Source: a virus
Reading direction: 5' to 3' (one strand)
IMG/VR virus record: IMGVR_UViG_3300034200_001443
Location: 32,001 to 96,000 of that record
Length of the DNA: 64,000 bases
Positions 40,693 to 61,189 of the stretch are shown in pieces. Made by a program: the position numbers and the translations under genes. The stretch's first letter is position 1, and every line of letters starts with the position of its first letter. The notes beneath the pieces are model-generated. The model was given only the letters and a program-made list of their open reading frames with translations. It did not search any database and was not told where the DNA came from.

Positions 40693-40844
40693 GGTCCTAT
40701 TGTACCGACTTTTTAAAGGGTGTACGAAAAGATAGTCTGCCTAATCTTGTACGGAATAGCTAAATATATGAACCTTTCCATATTTTGCTTTTGACCCCGG
40801 AGAAGGATATGTATGTTTTTGGCAATTCTGCAAATCGTTCCGGG

Positions 40845-41190
40845 CCTTTTTTCTAAAAAAATCTTTTTATTTTTTACCCCCTAAAAATAATCTTTTTTAC
40901 TATAAAAAAACCTAAAGACAAAGCAAGGAACTAATTTTTTATTGTTTTTTAGGTTATTTTTAAAGATCTTTATTATTTCTTTTTTCTTAATCCTTTTTAT
41001 TTTTTAATTTCTTAAAAGCTTTTTTTTTTTTTTTTATTTTTAAACATTTAACTCTTACTCACTAGTAACTTACTTACTAGTAATTTACTTACTAGTAACT
41101 TATTGAGTCTTATAAACTACTCACTAGTAACTTAGTGGGTCTTATAGAAAAAAGTTACTGACTAGTAACCCTCTAAAACTATAACTAGTC
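40845..41190. repeat. T-rich tract plus five 15-bp (T/C)TACTnACTAGTAA(C/T) repeats (origin- or terminus-like)
   Basis: Copies at 41055, 41070, 41085 (tandem), 41117 and 41155; T16 run at 41020-41035. Confidence 0.85.
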
Positions 41191-41214
41191 ATCTATAAAA
41201 AATCTTGTTTAGAC

Positions 41215-41244
41215 TTGCAAAAGTGCAGGAAAGTAGGGTATCTT
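41215..41244 (+). promoter_or_regulatory. Sigma70-type promoter with GCAGGAAAGTAG spacer motif
   Basis: TTGCAA-18-TATCTT. Confidence 0.7.
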
Positions 41245-41290
41245 TTACTTATTGGAGCAAGGGGCTTCAATAACACAAAGGGAGAAACAA

Positions 41291-41551
41291 ATGTCTTATG
41301 GAGTATCAATAACAGTTAAATACACAGAAACAACTTCAACAGGAACTATCACTAAAGAAACAAACTACAACTTCCATGTTGATACCGCATCAGGTGCAAG
41401 TGACTTAATCTCACAGACCGCAAAGAATGCAAAGGAAATGAATGCAGTTGTTCAAGAAGTAAAGGTCACAGAAGAGAACCAAAACTCTTATGAGAACCCT
41501 TACCGCAAATTATCAGACGGCGAAATCTTGGACTTACTCCTAACCAAGTAA
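41291..41551 (+). CDS. Hypothetical early protein
   Basis: AAGGGAG RBS before ATG 41291; flanked by promoter and terminator. Confidence 0.75.
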   Translation: MSYGVSITVKYTETTSTGTITKETNYNFHVDTASGASDLISQTAKNAKEMNAVVQEVKVTEENQNSYENPYRKLSDGEILDLLLTK

Positions 41552-41562
41552 CCGCAAGACTT

Positions 41563-41595
41563 AGCCCCCCTATCCAAGGGGGGCTTTTTCTTTTT
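41563..41595 (+). terminator. Intrinsic terminator
   Basis: AGCCCCCC..GGGGGGCT followed by a T run. Confidence 0.8.
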
Positions 41596-41628
41596 CAAGA
41601 CACACCGCAAAAGCTTTTACTTTTGATC

Positions 41629-41658
41629 TTGACAAAGTGCAGGAAAGTAGGTTATTCT
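41629..41658 (+). promoter_or_regulatory. Promoter with spacer motif
   Basis: TTGACA-aagtGCAGGAAAGTAGgt-TATTCT. Confidence 0.8.
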
Positions 41659-41702
41659 TTTCCTAGTGAGGTCAAGGGGACTTCACAAAAGGGAGAAATA
41701 AA

Positions 41703-41975
41703 ATGACAACACTAGCAATGACCGCAACACTAGAAATCACTCCAGTTCAATTATCTTTAATTGAAATGGCGCTACAAATTGAAATCGATACTTACGGCAA
41801 CAAAACTAAAATGCAAATGACTAGAGAACCTGCTCTCCGTATCTTCTCTCGTCTTATTGGTGACCCTCTACATCTTCCAAAGTTTAGAGGACTACAGGGA
41901 CGCAAGGACGCTCTTGCAATAGTTAAAGACTTCCTCATGCAACTTGAGGACGGCAGGGCTACCGTAGTGAAGTAG
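41703..41975 (+). CDS. Hypothetical early protein
   Basis: GGGAG RBS; cassette structure. Confidence 0.75.
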   Translation: MTTLAMTATLEITPVQLSLIEMALQIEIDTYGNKTKMQMTREPALRIFSRLIGDPLHLPKFRGLQGRKDALAIVKDFLMQLEDGRATVVK

Positions 41976-41987
41976 CCAACTCCCTAG

Positions 41988-42020
41988 AGAACCCCCCTAG
42001 AAATAGGGGGGTTTTTCTTT
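41988..42020 (+). terminator. Intrinsic terminator
   Basis: ACCCCCCTA-GAAA-TAGGGGGGT followed by a T run. Confidence 0.85.
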
Positions 42021-42030
42021 TGGCGTGTTG

Positions 42031-42059
42031 TTGCAAAATGCAGGAAGGTAGGTTATTAT
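42031..42059 (+). promoter_or_regulatory. Promoter with spacer motif
   Basis: TTGCAA-17-TATTAT containing GCAGGAAGGTAGG. Confidence 0.75.
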
Positions 42060-42103
42060 TTTCTTAGTGGGAAACCAATTACCACTATAGGGAGAGAGAC
42101 AAA

Positions 42104-42445
42104 ATGAAAACAGCAATTAAATTAACAACAGAGGGCAAGGCTTCTTTGATCGACTTAACCGCAGATAGCAACGAACTTGTAACACTTCAAATGGCGGTAG
42201 GTGGATACATTGAAGCAAAAACTCTTGAAGGTGGTTACACACTTTTTATGAACGAAGAAGGAAAGTTAATGCAACTTCCAATTAACGAAAGAGCAACCGA
42301 AATTTGGTTAGCCAACTTTCCTAACTTCCCAGATGTAATTGTGGGAGATGTAGTTATCGCAGGTGGAACAGATGATGAAGGCGAGCAACTAGGTCTTGAC
42401 TCTGACTATGCTGACCGCTTGTTGGAACTTTTTGCACAAGCATAA
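42104..42445 (+). CDS. DUF3846-like protein
   Basis: LQMAVGGYIE..NEEGKL..LPINERAT..IVGDVVI. Confidence 0.8.
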   Translation: MKTAIKLTTEGKASLIDLTADSNELVTLQMAVGGYIEAKTLEGGYTLFMNEEGKLMQLPINERATEIWLANFPNFPDVIVGDVVIAGGTDDEGEQLGLDSDYADRLLELFAQA

Positions 42446-42457
42446 GAACTAAAGCAA

Positions 42458-42490
42458 AGAACCCCCTACCAAAAGGCAGGGGGTTTTTTG
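42458..42490. terminator. Bidirectional intrinsic terminator between convergent genes
   Basis: ACCCCCT..AGGGGGT with A/T flanks. Confidence 0.7.
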
Positions 42491-42500
42491 TTGTCTTTAT

Positions 42501-42929
42501 TTAAGGAAGAACTCCAACGCTCTCACCTTGAAAAAGATAAGCCAAGACTTCTTCATCAAAGCAACCGCATTCATCAAGTCCCTTGGACTTTCTGAAAGCA
42601 TTGATCGCTTCAACTGCTCCTTCTTCAAGACGACCAAACTTATCGTTCATTACTGAACTAAAGCCTAAATCACTCAACCGAAGTTGAACTGTCTTGACTG
42701 ACTCGGAGTTGCCTTCATAAGCATTTACTTTTAATGCAGAAAGATAAACATACTTTTCAGGATTAGCTTGAAAAGTTGGGGCTTTCTTTTCTTTCTTTGG
42801 TTCTTCTTTTACTGCTACTGGTTTAACTTCTTCAACCTCTACTGGCTTGGACTCGAAAGAGAGCGCTTGCTCATTAGTTGAAGGTGCTACAGAACCAAGC
42901 AACGGCATAAGATTTTCTTGCTCGCTCAT
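42501..42929 (-). CDS. Protein with C-terminal peptidoglycan-binding (PG_binding_1-like) domain
   Basis: VKTVQLRLSDLGF..G....AINAFRKSKGL..G; start moved to MSEQEN (42929). Confidence 0.65.
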   Translation of the reverse strand: MSEQENLMPLLGSVAPSTNEQALSFESKPVEVEEVKPVAVKEEPKKEKKAPTFQANPEKYVYLSALKVNAYEGNSESVKTVQLRLSDLGFSSVMNDKFGRLEEGAVEAINAFRKSKGLDECGCFDEEVLAYLFQGESVGVLP

Positions 42930-42933
42930 AGTC

Positions 42934-43533
42934 TCACTTCTTTTCTGTGGGGAAATTGCCAAGCCATTGTTTGAACTTAGCGTAGTGACTTCCACTACTA
43001 CTAGTATAAGCGTCTTTACCTATGTGCCATGCTCTCCAAACCTCTCCACCTTGACTCATGTGGAAAGCAATTTGAGCATTTACAACAGGGTTAAACAAAT
43101 CTGCATTATGGGAAAGATCAAACTTCTCTCGTCTATCCTCTCCAAGACTGTTTATCATGTTGATTTGGAAGATACCGTAGGAGTTATCTCCTGTGAGAGT
43201 GTTTCCATTGAAGGCTAGGGGGCGACCATTACTTTCTTTCTTGGCTATTGCCCAAGCTTCTTTTAGTTCTTGACCTTCAAAGCCAACTGCTTCTAAAAGC
43301 CACACCAACTCAATGTCGGTAAGGTTGGTCTTGTTTTCAAAGTAGGACAGAGGCTTAGTCTTTTTGACTGGCTCTAACTGAACTACTGCTACTGCTTGCG
43401 TTGCCACTTGCTCTGTTGCGACAACCTCTTGGACTTTATTCTCTACCGCTACTGCTACTGCTCCTGATGATAGAACTATCATGAGCGACAACAGCGCCAG
43501 CACCTTTTCAGGGGTCTTTAGAGTTGGGTTCAT
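42934..43533 (-). CDS. Secreted lytic transglycosylase (SLT/lysozyme-like)
   Basis: Signal-peptide-like N-terminus; AIAKKESNG (catalytic Glu), SYGIFQIN, LFNPVVNA, W..W. Confidence 0.85.
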   Translation of the reverse strand: MNPTLKTPEKVLALLSLMIVLSSGAVAVAVENKVQEVVATEQVATQAVAVVQLEPVKKTKPLSYFENKTNLTDIELVWLLEAVGFEGQELKEAWAIAKKESNGRPLAFNGNTLTGDNSYGIFQINMINSLGEDRREKFDLSHNADLFNPVVNAQIAFHMSQGGEVWRAWHIGKDAYTSSSGSHYAKFKQWLGNFPTEKK

Positions 43534-43672
43534 TTGGTTTTTCCTTTGTTAGGTTACGGGGACAAGGTTGCTAACTGAGCCAACCCGACCATCGCCTCTT
43601 AGGGGATAGCCTTACTTCAAGTGTCTAATTCGTAAATCTCCTTGTGTCGTTAGTTCTTACTGTATAAACTCT

Positions 43673-43702
43673 AGCATAAATGCAGGAAAGTCCACTCGTC
43701 AA
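43673..43702 (-). promoter_or_regulatory. Promoter for the SLT gene; spacer motif in inverted orientation
   Basis: TTGACG-18-TATGCT on the minus strand; GCAGGAAAG reads on the plus strand. Confidence 0.6.
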
Positions 43703-44010
43703 ATCCGCATTAAGCGTGTCTTCAAACTATTTTTTACGCTTAAAAACCCTGCTGAGCGTGCTAGATCTATAAAAATCCCTAAATGCCCCAAAAAAAGTGC
43801 AGGAAGGACTGTTTTTAGCCCTTCCGCACACTTTTAGAGACTTGCGAGCGCCTAGCGTCTTTCCCTTGCTGAAAGGGTTGCAAGAGCGATAGAACTTAGT
43901 CCAAGAGACAAAACAAGACTGTCTTCTCCTTGTAGTCCAGCAATTATTGAGCCTACGGCAAGTATCATAGAGATTACCGCAGTCCAAACAACTCTTTTTA
44001 GATCCATTTT

Positions 44011-44241
44011 TTACCTCTTTCTTTTTTTATTAGAAGGTTTCTTTTTTGGCTCTGCTTTTTTTCCAGTAGGACTCGTCCTACCAACTAGCCTTGCAGAAGG
44101 GTCTCTAGCCTCTACCCCTTTTGAATAGACGGCTTTTCTTGCAGTTCGGTAGGCAACCCCTAACTCTTTAGCGACTGCCTCCATAGATAGACCGCTCTTA
44201 TAAAGCTTTACTGCTTCGTCTTGAATACTAGCGACTTTCAA
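44011..44241 (-). CDS. Small HTH DNA-binding protein
   Basis: LYKSGLSMEAVAKELGVAYRTARK; basic tail. Confidence 0.8.
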   Translation of the reverse strand: MKVASIQDEAVKLYKSGLSMEAVAKELGVAYRTARKAVYSKGVEARDPSARLVGRTSPTGKKAEPKKKPSNKKRKR

Positions 44242-44413
44242 CTTTATCTCTCCTTAGTCTAGAGATTTCTCCTTCAAGAAATCTTATCTTTTCATTTTTC
44301 TTGTTTATTACTCGGTGCAACTGACCTTGCGCCCTGATACCAACAACCATAACAAAGCAAGAGCCAGCGAGCGCAATAATTATTGCGAGCATTGTTCCTG
44401 TATCTAAAACCAT
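44228..44413 (-). CDS. Small membrane protein
   Basis: One TM helix plus a coiled coil; GGAGG RBS. Confidence 0.65.
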   Translation of the reverse strand: MVLDTGTMLAIIIALAGSCFVMVVGIRAQGQLHRVINKKNEKIRFLEGEISRLRRDKVESR

Positions 44414-44416
44414 TTT

Positions 44417-44584
44417 CTACCTCCTTACGCTTCTAGGGTCTACCTGTTTTGTCCCCTGACAAAATCCACACTCTTCCGCATGGGCATAACCTAAAGCCCC
44501 AACTAGATTAGATACTCCGCAAGACCTCATCAACAGACAGGCGAACTCTTGGTCGGTAAGTCCTGCTTGTAAATCATCAGCCAT
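44417..44584 (-). CDS. Hypothetical Cys/His protein
   Basis: ATG 44584; C..C..H..CxxC. Confidence 0.5.
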   Translation of the reverse strand: MADDLQAGLTDQEFACLLMRSCGVSNLVGALGYAHAEECGFCQGTKQVDPRSVRR

Positions 44585-44743
44585 TTTTAGCCTCTTCTTT
44601 TTCAAATTGAATTGCTTTATCTAAATCTATGTCGCAATAAGGGATACCCTTGTAAATTGTTATAGGTATCTCACTTGTATCTGCCCAGCAAACTTCGCAA
44701 GACTCCAACCCCGTGTATGGACTTGGGTGTTTAACTTTTTTAC

Positions 44744-44959
44744 TCATACCAAAATCCCTTCTAATCCTTCGTCATTTCCAAAGTCGCTTGGACTTATTAA
44801 ATCCAGCCACTCCCTAAATAAATAAACCAAACCTTCCTGCTCATTATTCCTTTTCTCAACAAGTCCCTCGTATAAGAAATAGGCTTGATCTTCTACTAAA
44901 TCTTCATAGGTTTCATAAGCTTCAATAAGCCGTAACTCTTCTAGCGTATAGGTTGGCAT
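44744..44959 (-). CDS. Hypothetical acidic protein
   Basis: GGGGTAAAAATG junction at the start. Confidence 0.6.
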   Translation of the reverse strand: MPTYTLEELRLIEAYETYEDLVEDQAYFLYEGLVEKRNNEQEGLVYLFREWLDLISPSDFGNDEGLEGILV

Positions 44960-44961
44960 TT

Positions 44962-45195
44962 TTACCCCTGCTCTTTAGTAAAGAGAAACGCAAAACCCGG
45001 ACCATTACCTTCGGGGTCTTGGGATAAACATAAGCCTTCGCCATTATCGAACTCTAAGAAAGGAATTGGCTCATGGGCTGAAACTTCCCACCCCAACTCT
45101 TCTGCTTCTTCGGCAGTAGCATTTCTAACTTTTATGAGAGTCGCCCCTACGAGCGACCCCCACTCCTTCTCTAAGTATTTCGATAGGTCGCTCAT
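44962..45195 (-). CDS. Hypothetical protein (SQDPEGNGPGF motif)
   Basis: ATGA-coupled start at 45195. Confidence 0.7.
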   Translation of the reverse strand: MSDLSKYLEKEWGSLVGATLIKVRNATAEEAEELGWEVSAHEPIPFLEFDNGEGLCLSQDPEGNGPGFAFLFTKEQG

Positions 45196-45380
45196 GGGTA
45201 TAACAAATCTAGGCAAAATTGGTTCATCTGCTCTGTTGGAACTTTGCACTCATCAGGTGTTGTTGCGTCATTAGCCCAAGCAAACAAACCTAGCAAGATA
45301 ACGCCAACGGCAATTCGGCGTCTAATAAACTTTGCTTCTGTTTTCACTTTGTCCCTGCTTTCTGTGACTCCCTTAGCCAC
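45192..45380 (-). CDS. Small membrane protein
   Basis: One TM helix; C..C; -10-like box 7 nt before the GTG start. Confidence 0.6.
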   Translation of the reverse strand: MAKGVTESRDKVKTEAKFIRRRIAVGVILLGLFAWANDATTPDECKVPTEQMNQFCLDLLYP

Positions 45381-45725
45381 TAGTAGAACTTTACACTACT
45401 TTCCTGCTTTTTTCTACTTTCCTGCTTTTTCCTTCTCTTTGGCGTGTCGCTTGGCTTCCTCTAGCAACTCCTCGAAACTTCTAAAGTCCTGCTCGAAAGA
45501 ACTCCAACTCTGTGCCAAAACTTTCTCTTTTCTTTTTGAGGAACTAATACGGCGTGATTTTTTAGTAAGTCTCTTTACAGTTCCGTAAATTGCACTATCA
45601 GGCAAACCCCACATTTTTTACCCCTTCCCTTAGTTAAGACTTAGTAGGGAGTCGTATTGTTTCCGCCCCTTGCAAGTTCTAGGCGTTCAGGTGACCAGCG
45701 ACTTCCCCCTACTAAGTTAAAAGAA

Positions 45726-45754
45726 ATAATACACGACTTCCCTGACATTTTCAA
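45726..45754 (-). promoter_or_regulatory. Promoter with spacer motif variant
   Basis: TTGAAA-atgTCAGGGAAGTCGtg-TATTAT. Confidence 0.7.
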
Positions 45755-45849
45755 ATTGACCGCACACGACACGCCAAGCCCCAAGTTCCCACACTTTTGT
45801 TTTTAGATAGAATAAAATTAAGACACAAGCCAAGAGAAAGGGAACTCAA

Positions 45850-45972
45850 ATGGCAAGAGTAAAAGCAAGAGAAGTAATGATTTGGATAAATTGCTATCGG
45901 TGTGGAGAGCAATTCCAAATTAGACAGATAGATTATTACCGCAACCTAATTTGTAATGGTTGCTTAAAATGA
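45850..45972 (+). CDS. 40-aa Zn-ribbon peptide
   Basis: AAGGGAA RBS; CYRC..CNGC (manual translation). Confidence 0.5.
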   Translation: MARVKAREVMIWINCYRCGEQFQIRQIDYYRNLICNGCLK

Positions 45973-46045
45973 ATTGCCAAACCGCAAAATGGCTTTATGA
46001 GATTTACGGATACGGAAAAGCTCATGAGTGCGAAAAGTGTTCAAA

Positions 46046-46074
46046 TTGAGAAATGCAGGAAAGTAGTGTATCGT
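46046..46074 (+). promoter_or_regulatory. Promoter with spacer motif
   Basis: TTGAGA-aatGCAGGAAAGTAGtg-TATCGT. Confidence 0.7.
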
Positions 46075-46125
46075 TAAGCCAGTTGGTTAATCATAGGGAA
46101 TAACCACACTAACAAAGGGAAACAA

Positions 46126-46458
46126 ATGCCAGTTGCAAGTCGTGAAGTAATTGAGGAACAAATAGAAAACGCAGATAGAAGTCTTGCAGTTCTTTCTATC
46201 TTTGCTATGAACTACCACCTAGACCTTTCCAAATGGGAAAGCTTTGCAGATGACGCAGAGAATAATTATCTCGGTAACTATGGAAGTCGTAGAACCTTTG
46301 CAGAGAATTATGCAGACCGCATTGGGATACTAAACTCAGGGGGCAACGGACAAATAGAAACTCTTGCTCGTTATTTTAACTATGACCTTTGGGTGCATAA
46401 CCTTTTCCAAGACGGAACAGTTTGGGAACATGAAGGTCATTACTTCCAAGCTCTTTAA
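46126..46458 (+). CDS. ardA: ArdA-like anti-restriction protein (C-terminal domains)
   Basis: YLGNYGS..FAENYAD...LARYFNYD.W..NL....V...GHYF matches the ArdA C-terminal consensus. Confidence 0.65.
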   Translation: MPVASREVIEEQIENADRSLAVLSIFAMNYHLDLSKWESFADDAENNYLGNYGSRRTFAENYADRIGILNSGGNGQIETLARYFNYDLWVHNLFQDGTVWEHEGHYFQAL

Positions 46459-46468
46459 GAAGTGAGAG

Positions 46469-46499
46469 TAGCCCCCCAAGAAATTGGGGGGTTATTTTT
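46469..46499. terminator. Terminator between convergent genes
   Basis: GCCCCCCAA-GAAA-TTGGGGGGT. Confidence 0.8.
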
Positions 46500-47067
46500 A
46501 TTCTCGGTATTGAGTTAAGAGGTAAAAAGGCTCGGCAGTTTTATTATCAAACTTTGAAGATACGGCGAGCGCAGTTTTAATTCCTGATCTTGCATTAGTT
46601 AAAGTTCTTTTCTTTCCTTCTGATAAAGCATTAAGAACACCTAAAGCATAAGCTGAACCTGAACCTACCGCATAAGCCCCGACAGTATCGTGACACCAAG
46701 AGAAGTCTTCGCCTATCTCATAAACAGTTCCATTAACTAAAACAATTATTTGGCTTTCGTGTTCCCCGTCCTTTGAGTATGAGGATTCCTCAAAACACTT
46801 CTTAAGTTCAGGGATAAAGACGGCAGTAATAAACTTATCTAGTTTTACCCCTAGAGTCGAAACAGTGCAGACAGGTGGCTTAAAGACATGAGCCAACAAG
46901 TTAATAGCCCGCACATCACCAGCTACTCCAATTATGTAATTTCCATTCTTAAAAACTTTCCCATTATCTTTCGGCAGAATGTAACTACGCCCGTCCTCTT
47001 CTGAAACCCTAGAGTCATAGCCAATAACTGACCAGCCTTCACCCTGAACCGCAGCTATTGTTGTCAC
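46498..47067 (-). CDS. HslV/proteasome-beta-like Ntn protease
   Basis: N-terminal MTTI, YDSRVS, GVAGD, AVGSGSAYALG. Confidence 0.85.
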   Translation of the reverse strand: MTTIAAVQGEGWSVIGYDSRVSEEDGRSYILPKDNGKVFKNGNYIIGVAGDVRAINLLAHVFKPPVCTVSTLGVKLDKFITAVFIPELKKCFEESSYSKDGEHESQIIVLVNGTVYEIGEDFSWCHDTVGAYAVGSGSAYALGVLNALSEGKKRTLTNARSGIKTALAVSSKFDNKTAEPFYLLTQYRE

Positions 47068-47079
47068 TTCAATCCTTAC

Positions 47080-47325
47080 CTAGTAGTTAAAATTATCCCA
47101 TAATTCATCACGCAAGGCGTATTCATACCTATCGGCAACCATAGAGTTTTTACCCCCTATGTCCTCACTTTCAATAAGTTTATCTAGTGAAAGAACCGCA
47201 GTGTATTCTTCGTCTTCAAACATGATTACTAACTTTGTATCTCCCTCGGCAGGATCATCAACTATAGCCACGACATACGGAGCGTTAGTTCCATTAGAGT
47301 GATAAACCTTTTGCACAATTTCCAT
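47080..47325 (-). CDS. Hypothetical protein
   Basis: YHSNG..PY.VAIV; TATTCT 7 nt before ATG. Confidence 0.65.
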   Translation of the reverse strand: MEIVQKVYHSNGTNAPYVVAIVDDPAEGDTKLVIMFEDEEYTAVLSLDKLIESEDIGGKNSMVADRYEYALRDELWDNFNY

Positions 47326-47415
47326 ACTCTAAAGAATAACCGCATCCAGCTTTCCTGATTTTTACCCCCCAAAAAGAAACCCCCCACTTTTCGGTGAGGG
47401 GCTTAGAGAGTTTTA

Positions 47416-47652
47416 TTATGCTTCTCCCCATAGTTCTTCTAGGGTGTCGGGTTCATAGGGGTCGCCCATTTCTTCCTTCTCCTTTTCGAAAGTCCAAGCG
47501 TGTCCGCACTCGCACTTTACTTCTGAGGATACATTTCCCCAGTCGTCTGTCATAAAGTCTTCTTCCCAAGCCTTACCGCACTCATAGCACTCTACTTCTA
47601 GAGTTACATCTTCGGCGTATATACCTGAGCCCTTCATACTTCCTTCGCTCAT
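47416..47652 (-). CDS. Zn-ribbon acidic protein
   Basis: CYECG..CECG; own promoter (47683-47711) and terminator (47376-47405). Confidence 0.7.
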   Translation of the reverse strand: MSEGSMKGSGIYAEDVTLEVECYECGKAWEEDFMTDDWGNVSSEVKCECGHAWTFEKEKEEMGDPYEPDTLEELWGEA

Positions 47653-47682
47653 TTTCTTTCTCCCTTCTGAGCAAGTGTTTTA

Positions 47683-47711
47683 ATTCTACACTACCTACCT
47701 GACATTTTCAA
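47683..47711 (-). promoter_or_regulatory. Promoter with spacer motif variant
   Basis: TTGAAA-atgTCAGGTAGGTAGtg-TAGAAT. Confidence 0.7.
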
Positions 47712-47866
47712 TAGGGACACTTCACCCCTGCTAGGGAGGCAAGGGTAAAGTGCGATAGGCATTGGAATACCTATCTCATCAGGGAGCGATAGGAAGGGAA
47801 TCCGCGCTACTACCTGGACTCCTATTCTAGCACCTACGATTTACCGCAAAAAACTTTTTACCCCTC

Positions 47867-48178
47867 TTAACCATTAAAACAATCAGGACACTCTAACTCT
47901 CTAACCGCACCAGCTACTTCACTATTAACTTTCCCTCTTCCGTAACAAGTCTCGCAATTAGGGTCACCTTCATCTAAGACTCCTATGTGATTACAAACCG
48001 CTTCTACATCCCACCCGTAGTGATGCTTCATTAACGCCTTTGCACTTCTAAGACAAGCGTCTTCATACACTTCGCCCTTTTCTACATCTTCTTCTCTTAC
48101 CGCAACACTTACGATCATAGAGAAATAATCTCCTATAAAGATTACATTCTTCGGTGTAATTAAATTATCCATAGACAT
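47867..48178 (-). CDS. Hypothetical protein with DnaJ-type CxxCxGxG Zn finger
   Basis: CETCYGRG..CPDC. Confidence 0.6.
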   Translation of the reverse strand: MSMDNLITPKNVIFIGDYFSMIVSVAVREEDVEKGEVYEDACLRSAKALMKHHYGWDVEAVCNHIGVLDEGDPNCETCYGRGKVNSEVAGAVRELECPDCFNG

Positions 48179-48248
48179 ACCTTACCGCTTTTTACCCCCA
48201 ACAAACAAGAAACCCCCGCCATTTCTGACGGGGGCTTCCTTTAATTTA

Positions 48249-49384: not shown

Positions 49385-49386
49385 TT

Positions 49387-50466: not shown

Positions 50467-50496
50467 ATAATAACCTACTTTCCTGCCTTTCGTCAA
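50467..50496 (-). promoter_or_regulatory. Promoter with spacer motif
   Basis: TTGACG-aaagGCAGGAAAGTAGgt-TATTAT. Confidence 0.8.
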
Positions 50497-50520
50497 ATCC
50501 AAACCTATCGTGTCGGGAAA

Positions 50521-50724: not shown

Positions 50725-50726
50725 TT

Positions 50727-50984
50727 TTACCCCTTATCCGTATTAGCGACAACTTTTTGTGCGATCTCTACAAAGTCCTCAGCAGCAGAGCTTTGGAAAT
50801 ACCACTCTCCGTTTTCGTAATTCTCTATTACCTCAGACCATTGTTCGTCCGTTAGTGTTAGGTCAGGCTTTTCTCCCCAACCCGAGCCGTATGACTCAAT
50901 AATCTTTTTATCCCAATAAGCGACAATCAACTCGTCCTCGCCGTCATAACTTTTCAATTGTTCTAATAAATCTTTTACTTTCAT
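50727..50984 (-). CDS. Hypothetical protein (MKVKDLLEQL..)
   Basis: ATG 50984 after GGGTAAAA. Confidence 0.7.
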   Translation of the reverse strand: MKVKDLLEQLKSYDGEDELIVAYWDKKIIESYGSGWGEKPDLTLTDEQWSEVIENYENGEWYFQSSAAEDFVEIAQKVVANTDKG

Positions 50985-51046
50985 TTTTACCCTTCCCCTT
51001 TGGTAAGGCACGCCGTTAGACGTGCCCTATAAGTTGTGTGACGCCG

Positions 51047-51283
51047 TTAGTAAGAGGCTCCTAGTTTGTCAGGATTATTTACTGCATAGTCCATGCCGTC
51101 ATTGTATCCAGCATAATAAAGACTCTCTAGCCGTTCGGCTAAAGCCTTTGTTGCCTTGTCTATGTTAGACATACTCGCCTCAAAATACATTATTTCTTCG
51201 GCTTGTTCTTTTACATCTTTACGAACTTCTTTTTTTGTTCTCAATTTTTCTACATCACCCCCCCGTAAGTTTCTTTCCAACAA
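51047..51283 (-). CDS. Hypothetical protein (start uncertain)
   Basis: Y.AGY.DG motif common in small phage proteins. Confidence 0.5.
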   Translation of the reverse strand: MLERNLRGGDVEKLRTKKEVRKDVKEQAEEIMYFEASMSNIDKATKALAERLESLYYAGYNDGMDYAVNNPDKLGASY

Positions 51284-51483
51284 TTAGGGTGCGTGCCTGT
51301 AAGCATTTGCTCACGCAACGCTTTATCTAAATCAGGGTAAGCCTCTTGAATAAGTCCACCAAGTTGCCTAACCAAAAAACCTTCCATAGGAACTTCTACT
51401 TGCCCGTAATCTCCACACACAAAACATTTTGGAGTTTCCACAATGTAAGTCGTGTTCTTTACCATTTCACCGAAAGCCGTCAT
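51250..51483 (-). CDS. Hypothetical Zn-binding protein
   Basis: CFVCG..IQEAYP.L....REQ..TGTHPNCW. Confidence 0.7.
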   Translation of the reverse strand: MTAFGEMVKNTTYIVETPKCFVCGDYGQVEVPMEGFLVRQLGGLIQEAYPDLDKALREQMLTGTHPNCWKETYGGVM

Positions 51484-51525
51484 TTTTTTCCCTTTCTGTT
51501 CGGTAAGTTTATTGTATCAGATTTA

Positions 51526-51822
51526 CTATTCAATTCCAAGTTCTTGGCGAATAGTGTCTACCGCTTCCATCCACGCTGCTGCTCGGACTTCATTGAGGAC
51601 ATCATCGTTCACGAAAAGTCTGAGAAACTTCAACCATTGTTCGTTTGTAATCTCAACTCCAAGATCAGACTCTACATCTGACTTACACCAGACGCCCCAA
51701 TGAACGAGTTCATTTTCGTCAAACTCTTGCGAAATAAACTCCGCAACTTGACCAGCCGTAAGGAACTCTGCATCTTCTTCTAATTCATCATCATCTATCT
51801 CTATGTCATTTTGATTTGTCAT
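51526..51822 (-). CDS. Hypothetical acidic protein
   Basis: ATGA coupling. Confidence 0.65.
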   Translation of the reverse strand: MTNQNDIEIDDDELEEDAEFLTAGQVAEFISQEFDENELVHWGVWCKSDVESDLGVEITNEQWLKFLRLFVNDDVLNEVRAAAWMEAVDTIRQELGIE

Positions 51823-52331
51823 TTTATATCACCCCCTAAAAAACCTTGATTCTTTTTATGGCGAAAGTTCTTTATATTGAAAGTAGTGTGACCCGTAGCC
51901 TCTGCTATTTCACGGGCAGTTATTTTATTGTCGATAGCAAGGATTATTAGTTCTTGCTTTCTTTTTTTCAGGTCGGAATATTGTTTAGAAATAATTTCCA
52001 ACTCGGTGAGAATTTTTACCGCAGTAGTGTCTACTGTTACTGACTTTGGTCTGCCCACTCTAAACTTCTGTGTAGATTTCACCTCACCTTTTTGAGTGAA
52101 ACCAATAGAGTAACTCTGCTTTACTCTTTTATAGCGATTAGTTATTGCTTGACTGCTTTGATAACCTAGAGCAAGAGCAAGTTCTACTGCCGAAACTCCT
52201 CGCTCAATCTCATCTACAATCAGTCTGTCAAACTCTAAAACTTCAACCGCAGCTCTATTACCGCCCCACGCTTTCTTTTGGTCTGGTTTTAGTTCTAGCA
52301 ATCTTTCGATTACCTTCTCGTCTGCTTTCAT
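51819..52331 (-). CDS. Double HTH DNA-binding protein
   Basis: VSAVELALALGYQSSQAI and ITAREIAEATGHT. Confidence 0.7.
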   Translation of the reverse strand: MKADEKVIERLLELKPDQKKAWGGNRAAVEVLEFDRLIVDEIERGVSAVELALALGYQSSQAITNRYKRVKQSYSIGFTQKGEVKSTQKFRVGRPKSVTVDTTAVKILTELEIISKQYSDLKKRKQELIILAIDNKITAREIAEATGHTTFNIKNFRHKKNQGFLGGDIK

Positions 52332-52376
52332 CAGCGAGATACCCCTTTCGTCATTTGGATAGTTATTATAGCATTT

Positions 52377-52871
52377 TTAGTGGTGGAAATCTGCAATAAC
52401 CGCAAATTGTTTTTTCGGGTCTTTTTCTATTCTTTCCATAAGATAAAAAAGCCCCCCTGTTCCTGCCTCTAAATCCCAGATAGCACTATCGCTATTCCAG
52501 TAATCAGCAATCAAAGTTCCAATCCTTCTTATGTAAAAACCAACCATACCTAAATCAAAGTTATTTATTCTTGGGTCATAACTATCTATAACTTCACCTA
52601 AAGTTTTACCCTCTTTATCGAAAGCAGCTAAACTTTCTTTCATGTGAGTATGGCGATACTCGGAAAAAGTATTTATCCATTTCATAAATACTTCAGGGTC
52701 ATTAGCGTAATTCAGAGCATTAGTAGGTTCATCATCTCCGAACATACCTGTCCAGCGACCACCAACTTCAGACCAATCAGACCAATCTGCTTCTTCTAGT
52801 CTGCTTTCAACTATCCCTATTGCTTCTTGGTGAGTATCTGCCTCAACCAAAAGTAATTGAACACAATGCAT
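52377..52871 (-). CDS. Hypothetical protein (WSDW..VGGRW.G, C-terminal ADFHH)
   Basis: Recurrent phage protein pattern; start motif upstream. Confidence 0.75.
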   Translation of the reverse strand: MHCVQLLLVEADTHQEAIGIVESRLEEADWSDWSEVGGRWTGMFGDDEPTNALNYANDPEVFMKWINTFSEYRHTHMKESLAAFDKEGKTLGEVIDSYDPRINNFDLGMVGFYIRRIGTLIADYWNSDSAIWDLEAGTGGLFYLMERIEKDPKKQFAVIADFHH

Positions 52872-52916
52872 TTTTTACCCCTCGTCATTTTGTCTTAGGT
52901 CTATTCTACCAAAAAT

Positions 52917-53384
52917 CTACTCCAAATCAAGAACCACGACTTGTCTGCCCTCAACTTGTGGCATTTGATTATTTTCAATCATGCAGACATTTACAAATTG
53001 TTCAATCAGGTATTGGCAAGCATGGTCAAAGGCTTCATCTGCTTGGTGATTGACCATGTCCAAATGCTCTCCGTCAGAACTGTAAACATCAAACCACGAA
53101 TTGTTTTGCCAATCCAATCGGGGATAATTCCCAGAACTTGCTTCTGCTAAAGCTTTATCCGTAAGTAGATCATCAGGGAACTCGCTACTGTTTGTGTAAG
53201 TGCTACCCGTTTCCCTGTCCTCAATCTTGGTATCTCCGTCTACATAAATCGTGACTTCAAAATCTCCTAGTCCTACTTTGCAGACCGCTCCCTTTTCCCA
53301 CCACACGCTTTCTTGGTGGTCGCCGTCAGGTGTGTTTCCATCAAGCCAAAAGAACTCAATCTCGTATTCCCCTGCCGTTGGCAT
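52917..53384 (-). CDS. Hypothetical protein
   Basis: Junction motif at the start; WQNNSWF. Confidence 0.65.
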   Translation of the reverse strand: MPTAGEYEIEFFWLDGNTPDGDHQESVWWEKGAVCKVGLGDFEVTIYVDGDTKIEDRETGSTYTNSSEFPDDLLTDKALAEASSGNYPRLDWQNNSWFDVYSSDGEHLDMVNHQADEAFDHACQYLIEQFVNVCMIENNQMPQVEGRQVVVLDLE

Positions 53385-53386
53385 TT

Positions 53387-53614
53387 TTACCCCTCGTTCA
53401 GTTTTTTCAAGAGCGAGCCTACTTGTTCCGTTGCTTCGTATTCCAAATCCATTTCGATAGGGTCGTCATAATTTAATGTTCTCCACCTGCCCTCATCATG
53501 ATCTACTCCGTCCCATACCGGGCCGTTCTTAAACCATGAACCTAAAGCTTCGTCTGCCGATGCCCATTTTTTTGTTTCCGTATTAAAACAAATTAAGTAA
53601 TGGATTTCTGCCAT
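53387..53614 (-). CDS. Hypothetical protein
   Basis: TAATG-coupled. Confidence 0.65.
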   Translation of the reverse strand: MAEIHYLICFNTETKKWASADEALGSWFKNGPVWDGVDHDEGRWRTLNYDDPIEMDLEYEATEQVGSLLKKLNEG

Positions 53615-53766
53615 TACAAAATCTCTCTTGCGTCAAAGTTCGCCTTATGAACTAGGTCGCCGTATTCCTCTGCCGTCCAAGCCTCTGCTTGTCGTAGAGC
53701 CTCGTCCTTGCTATCGGCTTCCCATACTGTTCTGATACTTGCCGATACTACAACTTCGTATTTCAT
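53614..53766 (-). CDS. 50-aa hypothetical protein (MKYEVVVS..EADSKDEA)
   Basis: Manual translation; AAAGGGA RBS; TAATG overlap. Confidence 0.65.
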   Translation of the reverse strand: MKYEVVVSASIRTVWEADSKDEALRQAEAWTAEEYGDLVHKANFDAREIL

Positions 53767-54198
53767 TTTTTCCCTTTCGTCATTTGTTCTTGTTATCCAA
53801 TCCTATCATACCTATCCAAATACCCGTCAATACCAAATTAAAGTTTTTACTTCCTATGCTCTCTTTTTAATTTTTGAGCGTAATTCCCGGTAGGGTGCTA
53901 CCTTTTTTTCGGAACTAAAAACTTCTAGTTAAAGGTGTTTAGTTTTACTGTGGTGCGGAAAATAAGTTATTCACTTCCGTCATGCTTCAGCTAATCCACG
54001 CTCACGACTACTTCGGTCTGCTGACTTGGTGGGGAACTGAAAACTTCCACACGATCTTGCGACCCGTTTCTTTTTACCCCGACAACGAAAAACCCCCTAC
54101 GCAACACCGATTCCGTAGGGGGCTTCCGTTAATCGTAATCGGGGGGACACACGCACCAATAAGGACGATACCCGACCACGAAATCTCTTGCCGTTATC

Positions 54199-55980
54199 TC
54201 ACGCCACGAACCTTTGCCCTGCCGTTGATAAAACTTTCTCGGCGTTCTTGCCGATAATTAAAGCAGACACACTTGGGTCAGTTATGTTCTCAACAACTTG
54301 GGCGTTCGCCGTTCCACAAATATGTTTAGCAGTTGAGCCGTTATCGCCAATCGGTAGCCATAGAACTGCTACGCCGTTCTTTGAGCAACGAGCAACCCAC
54401 GCCTTTGCGTTCTCTGTTTCCTCATGTGTGTAGTGTCCGTCAGATACAACAACTAATAATCTTGCGCCCTCACCATTAAGTAGATTGAGTGCGCCGTCCA
54501 AAGCACGAAACGCTTTATCAAACTTTTCAGTTCCGTCAGGGGCAGAATAAACATTTACTTCTTTTAGTCGTTGCCCTGCTTTTAGAGTTGGGAAAACATC
54601 TGAACCATAATAAACCATAGCGCAACGACCCTGAACTCGGCGAACTGCCTCACTCATAATCCAAGCAGTAGAAGCCATTGGGTTCATAGCAGAACTCATT
54701 GACCCTGAAATATCTACCATTACGCCAACTGAAAGTGTTGGTTCATCTGTGTGCTTACGAACTTTTTTTGAGAAAGCAGTTGGTTGAGAATAAACTCCAC
54801 GACTTTCCAAAGCCTTAGCCTCAATTACTTTTCTCATGTTTAATTTTCCGGGTGGAACAATACTTTTAACTTTAGTTATTCCACGCTCACGATACTTTGC
54901 TCTTTCTAAAGCCTTAGCAATTTTAACTGCGCTATTGCGTTCTTGACCATTAGGGCTTCGCTTCTCAACTAACTTAGAAGCAGTATGCGCTTCCCCCGGA
55001 CCTGAACTCTTTGAGAATACTTGACGAGCAATTTCCTCATTTTTCTTTTGCTCTTTAGAAGTATTGGCTTTAGCAGTTGCGCTCTCTTTCATATCCTCTG
55101 ATTGCTTTTGGTCTGCTAATTCATTGGCATTAGAAATAGAAATACTTTCGCTCATCTCGCCAAGCATTTCGCTAATCATTTCAGCAAAGGCTTCTTGTTG
55201 TTCTTGGGTTGGTTGTTCCCCTGCTTCCTCTGCCTTTTCACGAACTAATTTCGCCCACTCAATCGCTAGTGGATAGCAAGCAGAAATATCAGTATGAGTT
55301 GCGTGGTCTTGGAACTGATAAATAATTTCTTTTAATTTCATAACTAAATCAGAACCTAAAATCCCATTGACTTTATCTACTAAATCAAAGGCTTCTAATT
55401 CATCAAGCGACCCTGCGATAATTCTTGCGTGGCATAATCCAACTAAAGAACTAGCAGAACGAATTGTTGATTGCTCTGAAAATACTTCTTTGGCTTCGTC
55501 AATAATTAAACCCATAGCACTTGCTCGTAAAAAAACTTTTGCGTCAGCGTGGGTCTTAATACCCCATGCTTCTATGCGACCTTCCTCTAGCAACATCAAA
55601 GCCTCAAACTCATCTTGCTTTAGTGTCTTACCTGCTAGTGGAATATCCCATGCTGAAAACTTTGCGTGGTATGCCTCATGGCGAATTGCGCCAACTGCTT
55701 TAGCAAACTCGTATTGGTTCTTTCGCTTTGTTAAATCGTCAATCATGTTAGGTGTAGTGATTTCGCCAAAGGCTACTTTTGTATTTACTTCTACTTCTGC
55801 GAGAGCAGGTAAGAAACAAGCAGGTGCGCCTTGACCTGCTTCTGTTCCTAGTAAAGCAACTAGGTCAGTTCTATCAGCCCAAGTATTTACTAATTGAGTA
55901 ATTTCATATCCAACTCCTAGCCAATCGCTAGGTGTCTTAATCTTGGAACGATTAAGTTCCTGTGGCTTTATGTGTGCCAT
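54199..55980 (-). CDS. vWA-domain protein with N-terminal HExxH (CobT-like)
   Basis: RHEAYH..LEEGRIE; MIDAS DISGSM, GT, VSDG. Confidence 0.88.
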   Translation of the reverse strand: MAHIKPQELNRSKIKTPSDWLGVGYEITQLVNTWADRTDLVALLGTEAGQGAPACFLPALAEVEVNTKVAFGEITTPNMIDDLTKRKNQYEFAKAVGAIRHEAYHAKFSAWDIPLAGKTLKQDEFEALMLLEEGRIEAWGIKTHADAKVFLRASAMGLIIDEAKEVFSEQSTIRSASSLVGLCHARIIAGSLDELEAFDLVDKVNGILGSDLVMKLKEIIYQFQDHATHTDISACYPLAIEWAKLVREKAEEAGEQPTQEQQEAFAEMISEMLGEMSESISISNANELADQKQSEDMKESATAKANTSKEQKKNEEIARQVFSKSSGPGEAHTASKLVEKRSPNGQERNSAVKIAKALERAKYRERGITKVKSIVPPGKLNMRKVIEAKALESRGVYSQPTAFSKKVRKHTDEPTLSVGVMVDISGSMSSAMNPMASTAWIMSEAVRRVQGRCAMVYYGSDVFPTLKAGQRLKEVNVYSAPDGTEKFDKAFRALDGALNLLNGEGARLLVVVSDGHYTHEETENAKAWVARCSKNGVAVLWLPIGDNGSTAKHICGTANAQVVENITDPSVSALIIGKNAEKVLSTAGQRFVA

Positions 55981-56220
55981 GTCTTTCGTCCTTTTCTAAT
56001 CGTGTGTCCTTACAAAACCTATCATACCATTTTGGGGGGGATAATCAAACTTAGGGCTTGGCGTGGGGTGGGGAACTTGGGAAGTGATTTTAGATCCTGG
56101 AACCAAAGCTTTAACCCTGCCCTGCGTTATTTAGTTTTATTTACCCCTAGTTATTTAGAGAGTGGGAGTAGAGATACCTAACTCCCACCCTCAAAGCCAA
56201 CACTAGGTTCTAGGGAAAAC

Positions 56221-57279
56221 CTAGATTTTCGCTGGCTTATGCTCTGCGCCGAACGCCCGAGCAATTACATCAACAACTACATCTCTATCTATTTCAGGTG
56301 CGCTCGCAATTAAATTAGAAATTGCGAACTCTGTTCCAAAGACTTCACTTGTATCTCTGAAACCTAGCAACTCACGCATTTGTGGCGACCATGAGATTTC
56401 AGCACTATCGCCTTGTGTGCGCTTGTATAGATTTTGAGCAACGCTAACCATTGTCGCTGGCACTCCTAACTTCTTTGCCAACGCCCAATCAGTAGTTAGT
56501 TCTGCTTGGATTTGGAAACGAGATATTAACGCTTCACTCATGCGAACCCCCGGAGCATTTGGGTTAGTAGCAGAAACTACATAAAAATCCTCATGGACTT
56601 TAATAGTTCCTCTTTCAGGGTTCATTGGAATTGTTATCTCTTTTCGTCCGTCCATTACTGAATAGACAACTGCTAAGGCTTTAGGGTCAATCAAACCAAT
56701 CTCGTCAATAAAGAAAGGCTTTCCAAACTCAACTGCCTTAATAAATCCTGCGTCAATCCACTCAAACTTTCCACTTGGGGTCTGAATAAACGAACCATAA
56801 AAATCATTGGTATCAGTATCACCATTACCAATTAAAGTTATTACTTCGTCATTAGAAAAACTTGCTTCTACTAAAGCAGTTTTTCCTGTTCCCGGAACTC
56901 CATAGAAAAATGCGAATTGTGGAGAACCAACGCCCTCTGAAAAGAACTTCTTAGTTGCTTCTCTTGCTCGGCGTAGAACTGCTACATCAGTATGAACTCC
57001 CCATTGGCGAGTGAAATACTTTTGTCCATTAGGGCGAACATAGAACTCATCAGCACTCATGTTATCCACCTCAACTCCACTAGGGGTCATAGCACTAACT
57101 CGCTCTCTCGCTTTTCTTTTATCGCCACTTGCTCGCTCAACGCAACGACCACTTGGTAGAACTTTTGCGCTAAGTCGCAAAGAAGTATCCTCATGGACAC
57201 TTTGGGTCAAGCAATCAGAAACGATATTCCAAAAATCGCCTCTTAAAGAAGCCAACTTGTCTTTGATAATTGTATCCAT
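56221..57279 (-). CDS. MoxR/CbbQ/CobS-like AAA+ ATPase
   Basis: GVPGTGKT, FFIDEI, ATNP, SEALISRF, sensor-2 MREL. Confidence 0.9.
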   Translation of the reverse strand: MDTIIKDKLASLRGDFWNIVSDCLTQSVHEDTSLRLSAKVLPSGRCVERASGDKRKARERVSAMTPSGVEVDNMSADEFYVRPNGQKYFTRQWGVHTDVAVLRRAREATKKFFSEGVGSPQFAFFYGVPGTGKTALVEASFSNDEVITLIGNGDTDTNDFYGSFIQTPSGKFEWIDAGFIKAVEFGKPFFIDEIGLIDPKALAVVYSVMDGRKEITIPMNPERGTIKVHEDFYVVSATNPNAPGVRMSEALISRFQIQAELTTDWALAKKLGVPATMVSVAQNLYKRTQGDSAEISWSPQMRELLGFRDTSEVFGTEFAISNLIASAPEIDRDVVVDVIARAFGAEHKPAKI

Positions 57280-57291
57280 TTTTATTGCCCC

Positions 57292-57750
57292 CTAAGCAAT
57301 CTCAACAGGAAAGCCAAGTGCTTTTCTGCTTTGGTTGATACGATAAACAACTTTGATAGGTGTTTCACCTTTGTAAATCTCAATTAAATCATTTTGAGAA
57401 GTTTCTATCAGAATTGGGTCATTTACTAATTGCCAATCACCCTCAACCAATCCTGCGAAAATAGAGTTCAGGTGTTCTAAACGCTTAGAAACATAAGTGT
57501 CTTTAAGACCTAGTTCTGCTAAATCTTGTGAGCCAACTTTTGCTAATTCCTCTGCGAACTGAACAGTTGTCTGTTGCCATAACTTCTTTGGCTTTTCTCT
57601 AGAAACAATCCTGCGATAAATCTTGGCAGGAACTAAATCACCTGACGGCGTAAATCCGTCAGGGGTAATAAACATTTCTGTTCTGTATCCCGATTTTGCG
57701 AACTCGGCATAAACAGAAACACCCTGAATTGACTTTTCTTTGTCTAGCAT
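57292..57750 (-). CDS. Hypothetical protein, first gene of the AAA/vWA cluster
   Basis: 12 bp from the AAA gene; start motif upstream. Confidence 0.75.
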   Translation of the reverse strand: MLDKEKSIQGVSVYAEFAKSGYRTEMFITPDGFTPSGDLVPAKIYRRIVSREKPKKLWQQTTVQFAEELAKVGSQDLAELGLKDTYVSKRLEHLNSIFAGLVEGDWQLVNDPILIETSQNDLIEIYKGETPIKVVYRINQSRKALGFPVEIA

Positions 57751-57969
57751 TGGTATCTCTTTTCGTCATTTACCTAATTCCCTACGAACTAGGTGTTGGG
57801 TCAATCTTACCATTTTCTATCATAGAAGCAAATTAGGCTAGGTGTGTCTTAAAAAAGGTTCTACCCCCACACTAAAATGACGAGTAAAAGTATGGGGGTA
57901 GAAATCTATGTTTCCAGTTCCTAAGAAAGAGAAGCTTTAGAAAACCCTTTCTATGAGAACTGAAAGTTA

Positions 57970-58260
57970 TCAGTTCATATCGACTTCGATCAACTGTGCT
58001 GGAAGTTCGTCGGCAGGGGGTAAAACTTTGTGCGGTTTAATTCCGTACTTTTTAAATTCTTTTTTATACTTCTTTGAGTCACGACCCTCTGTAATCCAAT
58101 CCGATATCAGTCGTGCAACCAAAAAGCGTTCCTCGTCCTTAGCTTCACGAACTAACAAGAAGTCCTCGTGTATCCAGTTTTCTGTACCAATCACCGTTAT
58201 CTTGTCAGCGTTTCCGTAGTTTCCGTCAACATCAAAATAATGTATACGTCCCATGGGCAC
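57970..58260 (-). CDS. Hypothetical protein (YF.VDGNYG.A)
   Basis: AAAGGAG RBS. Confidence 0.65.
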   Translation of the reverse strand: MPMGRIHYFDVDGNYGNADKITVIGTENWIHEDFLLVREAKDEERFLVARLISDWITEGRDSKKYKKEFKKYGIKPHKVLPPADELPAQLIEVDMN

Positions 58261-61186: not shown

Positions 61187-61189
61187 GTT

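Follow-up and report, generated by a model that had tools for sequence, protein, structure and literature searches.

In tequintaviruses (T5, BF23), type I and type II restriction acts only through sites in the first-step DNA, and the factor that protects the later DNA of T5 is described as unknown, according to the portion of PMC10644984 drawn on here. In Autographiviridae, the leading region decides type I sensitivity and carries antidefense genes, as stated in an excerpt of PMC12455610. The principle that the DNA entering first is the DNA exposed to restriction is, thus, already known from T5 and T7-like phages. Avoidance of the same 4- to 6-bp palindromes is also found genome-wide in phages, presumably with the same selective agent, whereas in the genome described here it is mostly confined to 13% of the sequence, the rest amounting to ~117 kb. 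This genome (G000) is that of an uncultured siphovirus from a lake, and the window that we analyzed is a 64,000-nucleotide stretch covering bases 32001 to 96000 of its single 134,380-bp contig (IMG/VR record IMGVR_UViG_3300034200_001443). The element in question is an island of ~17.2 kb within the window, a block of early-type genes that lies next to the late operon leading to the portal gene and that is nearly free of certain short palindromes (Table 1).

An earlier sequence-only reading of the window had proposed this island from a run of DNA without GTAC, and the counts bear it out. Of the 89 GTAC sites in the window, none lies within 40755-58040. Across the genome (n = 232), the largest gap between GTAC sites measures 17,296 bp (genome positions 72749 to 90045, window positions 40749 to 58045), while the second largest is 3,888 bp. 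The flanking sites are those that the sequence-only reading had listed (40702, 40722, and 40749 on one side and 58045, 58184, and 59787 on the other), except that the one it had placed at 40147 is at 40167. The island contains 185 GTA trinucleotides, none followed by C, and 264 TAC trinucleotides, none preceded by G. The near absence of two further words was confirmed as well, given that only 1 of the window's 76 ACGT sites (at 51020) and 2 of its 57 GGCC sites (at 40843 and 53521) fall in the island.

Expected counts were derived from a maximal-order Markov model built on the island's own tri- and dinucleotides and were computed for all 136 reverse-complement classes of tetramers. The observed/expected (O/E) counts in the island were 0/41.4 for GTAC, 1/37.4 for ACGT, 1/28.5 for CGCG, and 2/29.8 for GGCC, compared to 232/377 (0.62), 137/285 (0.48), 31/83 (0.37), and 118/133 in the rest of the genome, so that a large difference between the island and the rest persisted after Markov correction. 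Together with ATAT (19/64.5, compared to 604/528 in the rest of the genome), AGCT (25/71.3, compared to 780/779), TCGA (18/47.7), CCGG (9/23), TATA (31/70.7), and GATC (21/47.1), these palindromes are the ten lowest of the 136 classes in the island. Outside the island, AGCT, ATAT, GGCC, and GATC reach 0.89 to 1.14 of expectation. CTAG (81/83) and AATT (119/130) show no depletion in the island. The 64 hexamer palindromes follow the same pattern (56/147, or 0.38, in the island versus 1536/1658, or 0.93, outside), with 43 of the 64 having no island copy at all. Interrupted palindromes are low too (GCCGC, 0/15.3; GGACC, 2/17.1; CCAGG, 2/12.5), and GAATC, CTCAG, and GCAGC are likewise among the island's most depleted pentamers. 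An unbiased scan of the entire genome for total palindrome O/E in sliding 4-kb windows found this to be the sole such island, with values of 0.38 to 0.62 versus ~0.7 to 1.15 elsewhere. The edge for GTAC is sharp on both sides, and the second-tier words remain partly depleted on to ~59.7 kb.

We considered whether the depletion could be a by-product of composition, codon usage, or amino acid content in highly expressed small genes, given that GC skew in the island is strongly negative and that one coding strand dominates. The Markov model based on the island itself nevertheless leaves four words at 0 to 7% of expectation. In 500 synonymous-codon shuffles of 37 island genes, which preserved the proteins and the codon pool, GTAC appeared 36.5 +/- 5.4 times versus 0 observed, and all 16 palindromes totaled 716.9 +/- 22.1 versus 379 observed, a value that 0 of the 500 shuffles reached. 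Only palindromes are affected, and intergenic DNA is purged too; the residual sites of this genome are not concentrated in intergenic gaps. The Markov and synonymous-shuffle results refute the by-product explanation, to which we assign practically no probability. The avoidance is real, specific for restriction-type palindromes, and confined to one early-type gene block.

The same block was then compared across relatives in IMG/VR, from which we retrieved 52 loci through the VWA protein (the conserved anchor of the block) and 80 through the portal protein; five near-complete and four partial genomes were taken whole. Among named genomes, that of Actinomycetia phage DSL-LC01 (OQ999401) is the closest; it is syntenic, with 75 to 78% identity in the capsid protein and 75% in the terminase, and is itself a lake metagenome assembly according to the part of PMC10611076 consulted. 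Near-identity DNA searches of the phage collection with the island and with the giant head-module gene gave no match. The order p152-AAA-VWA ... HslV ... SLT ... 165-amino-acid (aa) gene-portal is kept in 7/7 genomes. In the relatives examined, the island starts at p152 or up to ~2 kb upstream of it; the p152 edge is fixed, and island length varies from ~14 to 24 kb. Two relatives (G001 and G002) have one island at the same place, and a third (G003) has an island for fewer words. Among VWA loci of at least 21 kb, 12/27 have a block O/E of at most 0.65 that is also at least 0.2 below that of the flank; the difference between block and flank is at least 0.15 in 17/27 and less than 0.1 in 7/27. 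The block side was lower than the structural side in 10/10 portal loci with full flanks. At p152, the index of the partial genomes G011 and G012 drops from ~1.0 to 0.14 to 0.17, and it recovers 20 to 24 kb later, before the terminase gene.

The purged words are lineage-specific and come in two tiers, one missing from the block only and one missing genome-wide. G002 lacks CCGG (0, ~152 expected) and GATC (0, ~331 expected) altogether and is purged of ACGT, ATAT, GGCC, GTAC, and TTAA in the block only (TTAA, 1/35 versus 505/529 outside). In G003, AGCT and GATC are absent and GGCC is near zero genome-wide (0/41 in the block, 5/156 outside), and ATAT and CATG are purged in the block only. DSL-LC01 (129,469 bp) has no island; it lacks ATAT (~126 expected) and TTAA (~123 expected) throughout, and its other palindromes are near expectation. 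This pattern points to a fixed segment that remains under selection while the sets of restriction enzymes exerting it change. A terminase gene inside the block had been tried as a mark of island-free genomes and was rejected, given that the strong islands of G011 to G014 stop before the terminase gene. In one of these, G014, an 816-aa open frame (59516-61951) contains the large terminase, and the terminase match is split in two, which suggests an intein or other insertion.

These comparisons also bear on the proposal that the island was acquired recently, by horizontal transfer, from a donor phage with genome-wide avoidance of these words. Early phage regions are mosaic, and few small open reading frames of the island have homologues in DSL-LC01, as an import would predict. 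However, p152, AAA, VWA, HslV-like, and SLT genes are syntenic in 7/7 genomes, the identities of the block core genes in these genomes rank broadly as those of portal and capsid do, the G+C content of the island (~0.41 to 0.42) is close to that of the genome (0.408), and different words have been purged at the same place in relatives. Given that many relatives carry the block in synteny and that it has been purged there of words that differ by lineage, we regard a recent import as highly improbable. An assembly chimera is unlikely, given that 20 lake-water metagenome runs, 6 of them possibly the source of the contig, contain a 10-kb stretch over the left island edge at 0.82 to 0.99 of the sampled words, and that contigs carrying both the VWA and the portal genes (four locus pairs) occur in other assemblies.

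A purge of the early block driven by restriction is very likely. Restriction as the selective agent, a later protection of the remaining genome, and staged entry are inferred. A cut at any position would be lethal, and sites are nonetheless plentiful in the remainder of the genome; protection there must, thus, be independent of the word, and a protection so indifferent to the word fits a temporal or physical mechanism. We lean, if only slightly, toward a reading in which the type II enzymes of the host encounter the early DNA before the remainder has come under a sequence-independent protection, most likely through staged entry as in T5. Host type II restriction would have purged the block of target words given that, in a new, nonmodifying host, the block must remain uncut and serve host RNA polymerase as a template. 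The block would enter first, its genes would be expressed, and the remainder would follow after restriction has been disarmed. Experiments have established this pattern in T5 and BF23 for their first-step-transfer DNA and in T7-like phages for their leading end.

The T5 precedent to which the sequence-only reading had appealed is genuine in the portion of the source cited above, and the T5 record gives a signal in the same direction. As a positive control, the annotated first-step DNA of T5 had a tetramer O/E of 0.83 versus 0.97 in the next 40 kb, and hexamers gave 0.67 versus 0.82. The T5 signal is far weaker than the one here, where ten tetramers have an O/E of 0 to 0.45 and the depletion extends over words of 4 to 6 bp. 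The lake phage resembles T5 in its small early genes, host-type promoters, large siphovirus genome, and repeat-rich noncoding region at one border. It differs in the greater length of the block (17 kb versus the ~10-kb terminal repeat of T5/BF23) and, if the repeat starts at the same place as in the cultured relatives, in that this end would not carry the purged block. As to two-step entry with an injection stop signal, the lake phage shows resemblances only, namely, the 560-bp repeat-rich noncoding DNA at one edge of the island and the conserved terminator at the other. The likeness to T7-like Autographiviridae is that most island genes run in one direction from the p152 edge and that depletion weakens with distance in some relatives. 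Those phages are podoviruses with short repeats, in which ~1 kb enters and transcription drives internalization and in which type I enzymes are concerned, whereas the lake phage is a siphovirus of 134 kb, and the words purged from its 17-kb block are type II words.

We also considered that the whole genome could enter at once, with the rest protected by a virion factor, either a base modification made late in the preceding cycle or coinjected proteins such as the 3,527-aa protein, and with the island purged given that the early genes must be read from naked DNA. The giant protein of the head operon has helicase and ArdC-type matches, the genome encodes nucleotide-metabolism and glycosyl/methyl-transferase-like genes (common to DSL-LC01), and the island edges coincide with transcription-unit borders, all of which this explanation could accommodate. 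On the other hand, no known mechanism leaves one contiguous 17 kb unmodified, and injected Dar-type proteins are known to act against type I enzymes, not 4-bp cutters. An exposed remainder would also lose sites, and AGCT, ATAT, GGCC, and GATC stand near expectation there. In addition, no match to a C5, N4/N6, or D12 DNA methylase was found in the G000 genome, and self-methylation by these three major families, thus, does not explain the tolerated sites. Entry of the whole genome at once appears to us a doubtful alternative.

Several observations weigh against staged entry of a purged block. Five genomes (G004, G005, DSL-LC01, G007, and G009) have the block and show no purge. The depletion is graded from the p152 edge in G001, G002, G011, and G012, flat in G013, and irregular in G000, and this mixture of flat and graded profiles does not settle whether entry is in two steps or progressive. 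A tblastn search of the genome with 15 T5 pre-early proteins, including A1, A2, and Dmp, gave a best E value of 0.12; with no such homologue, the relationship to T5 is one of analogy, not of family membership. The exact terminal repeats of the cultured phages GodonK, A3Wally, and Atuin show no purge. The repeat start in 11/11 cultured records corresponds to the homologue of the 312-aa gene, 4.4 kb beyond the island, and those 4.4 kb have normal palindrome counts. Finally, the contig ends in public assemblies give no consistent terminus.

The cultured relatives are instructive with regard to the genome ends. Terminase identity is 58 to 62% to Microbacterium phages and 43 to 44% to Arthrobacter phages, and capsid identity to phages of the A3Wally/Atuin type is 51 to 54%. 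For A3Wally, Atuin, and GodonK, the figures are 44 to 62% for the terminase and 48 to 52% for the capsid. Exact direct terminal repeats carrying small genes measure 7,581 bp in GodonK, 15,503 bp in A3Wally, and 17,312 bp in Atuin. The 312-aa protein of the window matches gene 1 in all 11 cultured Microbacterium/Arthrobacter records (E 2e-37 to 2e-5), where this gene lies 62 to 260 bp from the physical left end and in both copies of the terminal repeat. One record names the homologue small terminase, and the sole PDB hit of the protein is also a small terminase at a nonsignificant E of 0.8; the 312-aa protein is, thus, possibly a small terminase. By homology, a repeat in the lake phage would start near 63.15 kb, and the island would be no more than the distal portion of a ~21- to 22-kb repeat. 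GodonK, A3Wally, and Atuin resemble the lake phage in having a related terminase and capsid and a homologue of gene 1, and at the end of the Atuin repeat a reverse-strand block gives way to a divergent gap, an architecture like that of the portal-side edge. They differ in the absence of palindrome depletion and in the relative order of the VWA gene and the gene 1 homologue.

The sequence-only reading had suggested that the island might be a long terminal repeat, and this idea stands insofar as cultured relatives have repeats of 7.6 to 17.3 kb and fails insofar as those repeats start 4.4 kb outside the island. The strict form of the idea, in which the island is an exact long direct terminal repeat collapsed in the assembly and the purge marks the repeat, gains something from the similar size of the repeats in A3Wally and Atuin and from T5, where repeat and first-step DNA nearly coincide by the annotation of the record. 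Given that the GodonK, A3Wally, and Atuin repeats are unpurged, repeat and purge are separable, and given that the gene 1 homologue lies in unpurged DNA, a simple equation of terminal DNA with purged DNA fails at that end. A variable island length with a fixed p152 edge argues in the same direction, and we consider the strict form improbable. The ends of the contig itself share only an 87-bp overlap, which is located within a 36-bp tandem repeat. Contig ends were tried as a proxy for a terminus among the relatives, where five portal-side contigs (L061, L072, L082, L086, and L087) start within ~20 bp of one another near 42555-42571. This cluster was rejected as a terminus given that it lies in a conserved coding word at the 3' end of the peptidoglycan-binding gene, and it probably reflects a branch in the assembly graph where co-occurring strains diverge. 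The starts of contigs located upstream of the gene 1 homologue are not homologous to one another, and the repeat borders of A3Wally, Atuin, and GodonK yielded no conserved cleavage motif transferable to this genome.

Staged entry of the purged block could take either of two forms. In the first, as the Atuin architecture suggests, a repeat would run from upstream of the 312-aa gene to the noncoding region at ~40.8 kb, the last-packaged right end would bring the island in ahead of the rest, with a pause in entry close to the terminator at ~57.85 kb. In lambda and SPP1, the small-terminase end is packaged first; with this polarity and a ~22-kb repeat, the island would be the first DNA out of the capsid. 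In the second, the p152 edge would lead, and the DNA would be pulled inside by leftward transcription, in the manner of T7. This second form gains support from the sharpness of the p152 edge and from the depletion gradient in four of the relatives.

The distribution of methylases may offer a further lead. A C5 methylase is encoded in three of the five island-free genomes (G004, G005, and DSL-LC01) and was not found in the other two (G007 and G009, 88% and 68% complete by CheckV), while none was found in five island-bearing genomes (G000, G001, G002, G003, and G010) or in G006, whose island is weak. The sample is small and the genomes are phylogenetically dependent, and the correlation between methylase and island is, thus, only a lead. 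The loss of two A/T-only palindromes from DSL-LC01 would fit words that cytosine methylation cannot cover. Very tentatively, and more likely wrong than right as a whole, one may imagine two antirestriction architectures, both legible in the sequence by itself: phages with no methylase would combine a site-free, first-entering block with generic protection, and phages with a cytosine methylase would have no island and would lose genome-wide only the words that methylation cannot cover (ATAT and TTAA in DSL-LC01). In the same joint picture, block-only words would mark enzymes that the phage disarms and genome-wide words enzymes that it cannot, and the p152-MoxR-VWA operon would be the counterpart of T5 A1/A2, gating the entry of the remaining genome or protecting it.

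The gene content of the block is of an early type, with an ArdA-like protein and ~35 proteins of unknown function, and nearly all genes at 42501-57750 run leftward. The sequence-only reading had described strong host-type promoters in the island, and this holds in part. A conserved promoter word has nine matches in the genome at up to 3 mismatches, all of them at 41226-50470 and on both strands, and six island sites match at least 10 of 12 promoter positions, five of these being conserved-spacer copies. The total number of sigma-70-like sites in the island (30) shows no excess over shuffles (31.6 +/- 6.7). Terminator-like sites number 29 versus 15.4 +/- 4.0 in shuffles. Each of the three promoter copies nearest to the portal-side edge precedes one rightward gene, and a hairpin terminator lies behind each of these genes. 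In general scans of the proteins, which included no dedicated search for one, no phage RNA polymerase was noticed. The ArdA-like gene that had been reported is real and scores above the cutoff for PF07275, although marginally so (28.2 versus 27 bits, or 1.2 bits above), and the match is partial, given that it covers only profile positions 87-153 of 155, the C-terminal third. Antidefense islands in the leading regions of conjugative plasmids offer a comparison, given that ArdA-like and DUF3846 genes are present here too, each with its own promoter, and DUF3846 is associated with plasmid leading regions. Searches of Pfam and NCBIfam found no family for p152, the 165-aa late gene product, or the 312-aa gene product.

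The portal-side edge sits between the late operon and the divergent first genes of the island, and the equivalent place in all relatives is a long, repeat-rich noncoding stretch. In G003 and DSL-LC01, the ~600 bp upstream of the 165-aa late gene include long low-complexity arrays of CACATA/CATAGG-type and CACGCA-type; at that border, this phage has AT-rich iterons instead. The GTACA-type words just outside the island, together with a ~60-bp conserved stretch directly upstream of the first late gene, have equivalents in G001, G002, and DSL-LC01 and are probably a late promoter or a protein-binding element, perhaps for packaging. The 165-aa gene adjoins the portal gene in 7/7 genomes, and its homologue in A3Wally follows the terminase gene. 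The far edge can be aligned in nine relatives, directly upstream of p152. In the terminator at this edge, the loop sequence is conserved over the nine relatives, and the stem varies with compensating changes.

If this reading is true, staged entry with a late, sequence-independent protection is not peculiar to T5-like coliphages, and the same strategy operates in abundant freshwater actinobacterial phages without shared early genes. The purge signature would be strong enough to serve as a sequence-only marker of the DNA that is exposed first and could read out the restriction specificities deployed by uncultured hosts. The ~35 early genes, including the conserved AAA+/VWA operon, would be the place to seek the factor that shields the late-entering DNA.

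Table 1. Features of the window discussed in the text (window coordinates)
Feature	Position	Strand	Remarks
Tape measure	9636-12899		
Major capsid	17826-19910		
3,527-aa head-module protein	25686-36269		Helicase and ArdC-type antirestriction matches: phrog_1967, E 2.8e-85; phrog_7245, E 6e-73
Portal	37418-39154		
165-aa protein	40195-40692	-	First gene of the late operon leading to the portal; outside the island
Portal-side edge	40693-41251		560 bp, AT-rich, noncoding; six ACTAGT-containing iterons (41061-41190), long T/A runs
Three GTACA-type words	40702-40755		Immediately beyond the island border; upstream of the first late gene
Palindrome-purged island	40850-58044		GTAC + ACGT + CGCG + GGCC: 3 observed versus ~137 expected
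Three promoter copies	41214, 41628, 42029 (41214-42069)	+	Conserved spacer word
DUF3846 protein	42104-42445	+	PF12957, 63.5 bits; own promoter
Peptidoglycan-binding-like protein	42501-42995	-	PF01471, 21.9 bits, below the cutoff of 23
SLT/lysozyme-like protein	42934-43533	-	PF18896, 52.7 bits
Six further promoter copies	45387-50503	-, +	Conserved spacer; - strand at ~45391, 45729, 47686, 49850, 50470; + strand at 46056
ArdA C-terminal-domain-like protein, 110 aa	46126-46458	+	Own promoter; phrog_2059 (antirestriction), E 8.5e-5
HslV-family peptidase-like protein	46498-47067	-	phrog_1040, E 6.6e-23
593-aa protein, C-terminal VWA (CoxE-like) domain	54199-55980	-	PF05762, 23.7 bits, below the cutoff of 26.4
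MoxR-type AAA+ ATPase (AAA_5)	56221-57279	-	PF07728, 51.3 bits
p152, 152 aa	57292-57750	-	No known family; first gene of the p152-AAA-VWA operon
Far island edge	57804-57903	-	Terminator of the upstream operon (57851-57903), then sigma-70-like p152 promoter (~57804-57832, read by eye)
312-aa protein	62179-63117	-	Outside the island; homologue of gene 1 of cultured relatives

Three minor observations concern the surroundings of the island and the retrieved loci. Next to the island, in the window stretch 59700-62100 and, for relatives, in the bin 2 to 4 kb upstream of p152, the palindrome O/E was about 1 or higher in 6/8 genomes (1.07, 1.01, 1.01, 0.93, 1.26, and 1.05). An Rfam search of the window found no RNA family, and the segment at 61187-62027 is G+C-rich (~0.52), with neither a convincing open reading frame nor an Rfam match. 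Lastly, two of the loci (L096 and L101) belong to one 160,704-bp IMG/VR contig with two portal homologues (80% and 76% identity) ~136 kb apart; either two related phages have been joined in a chimera, or the assembly is over-long.

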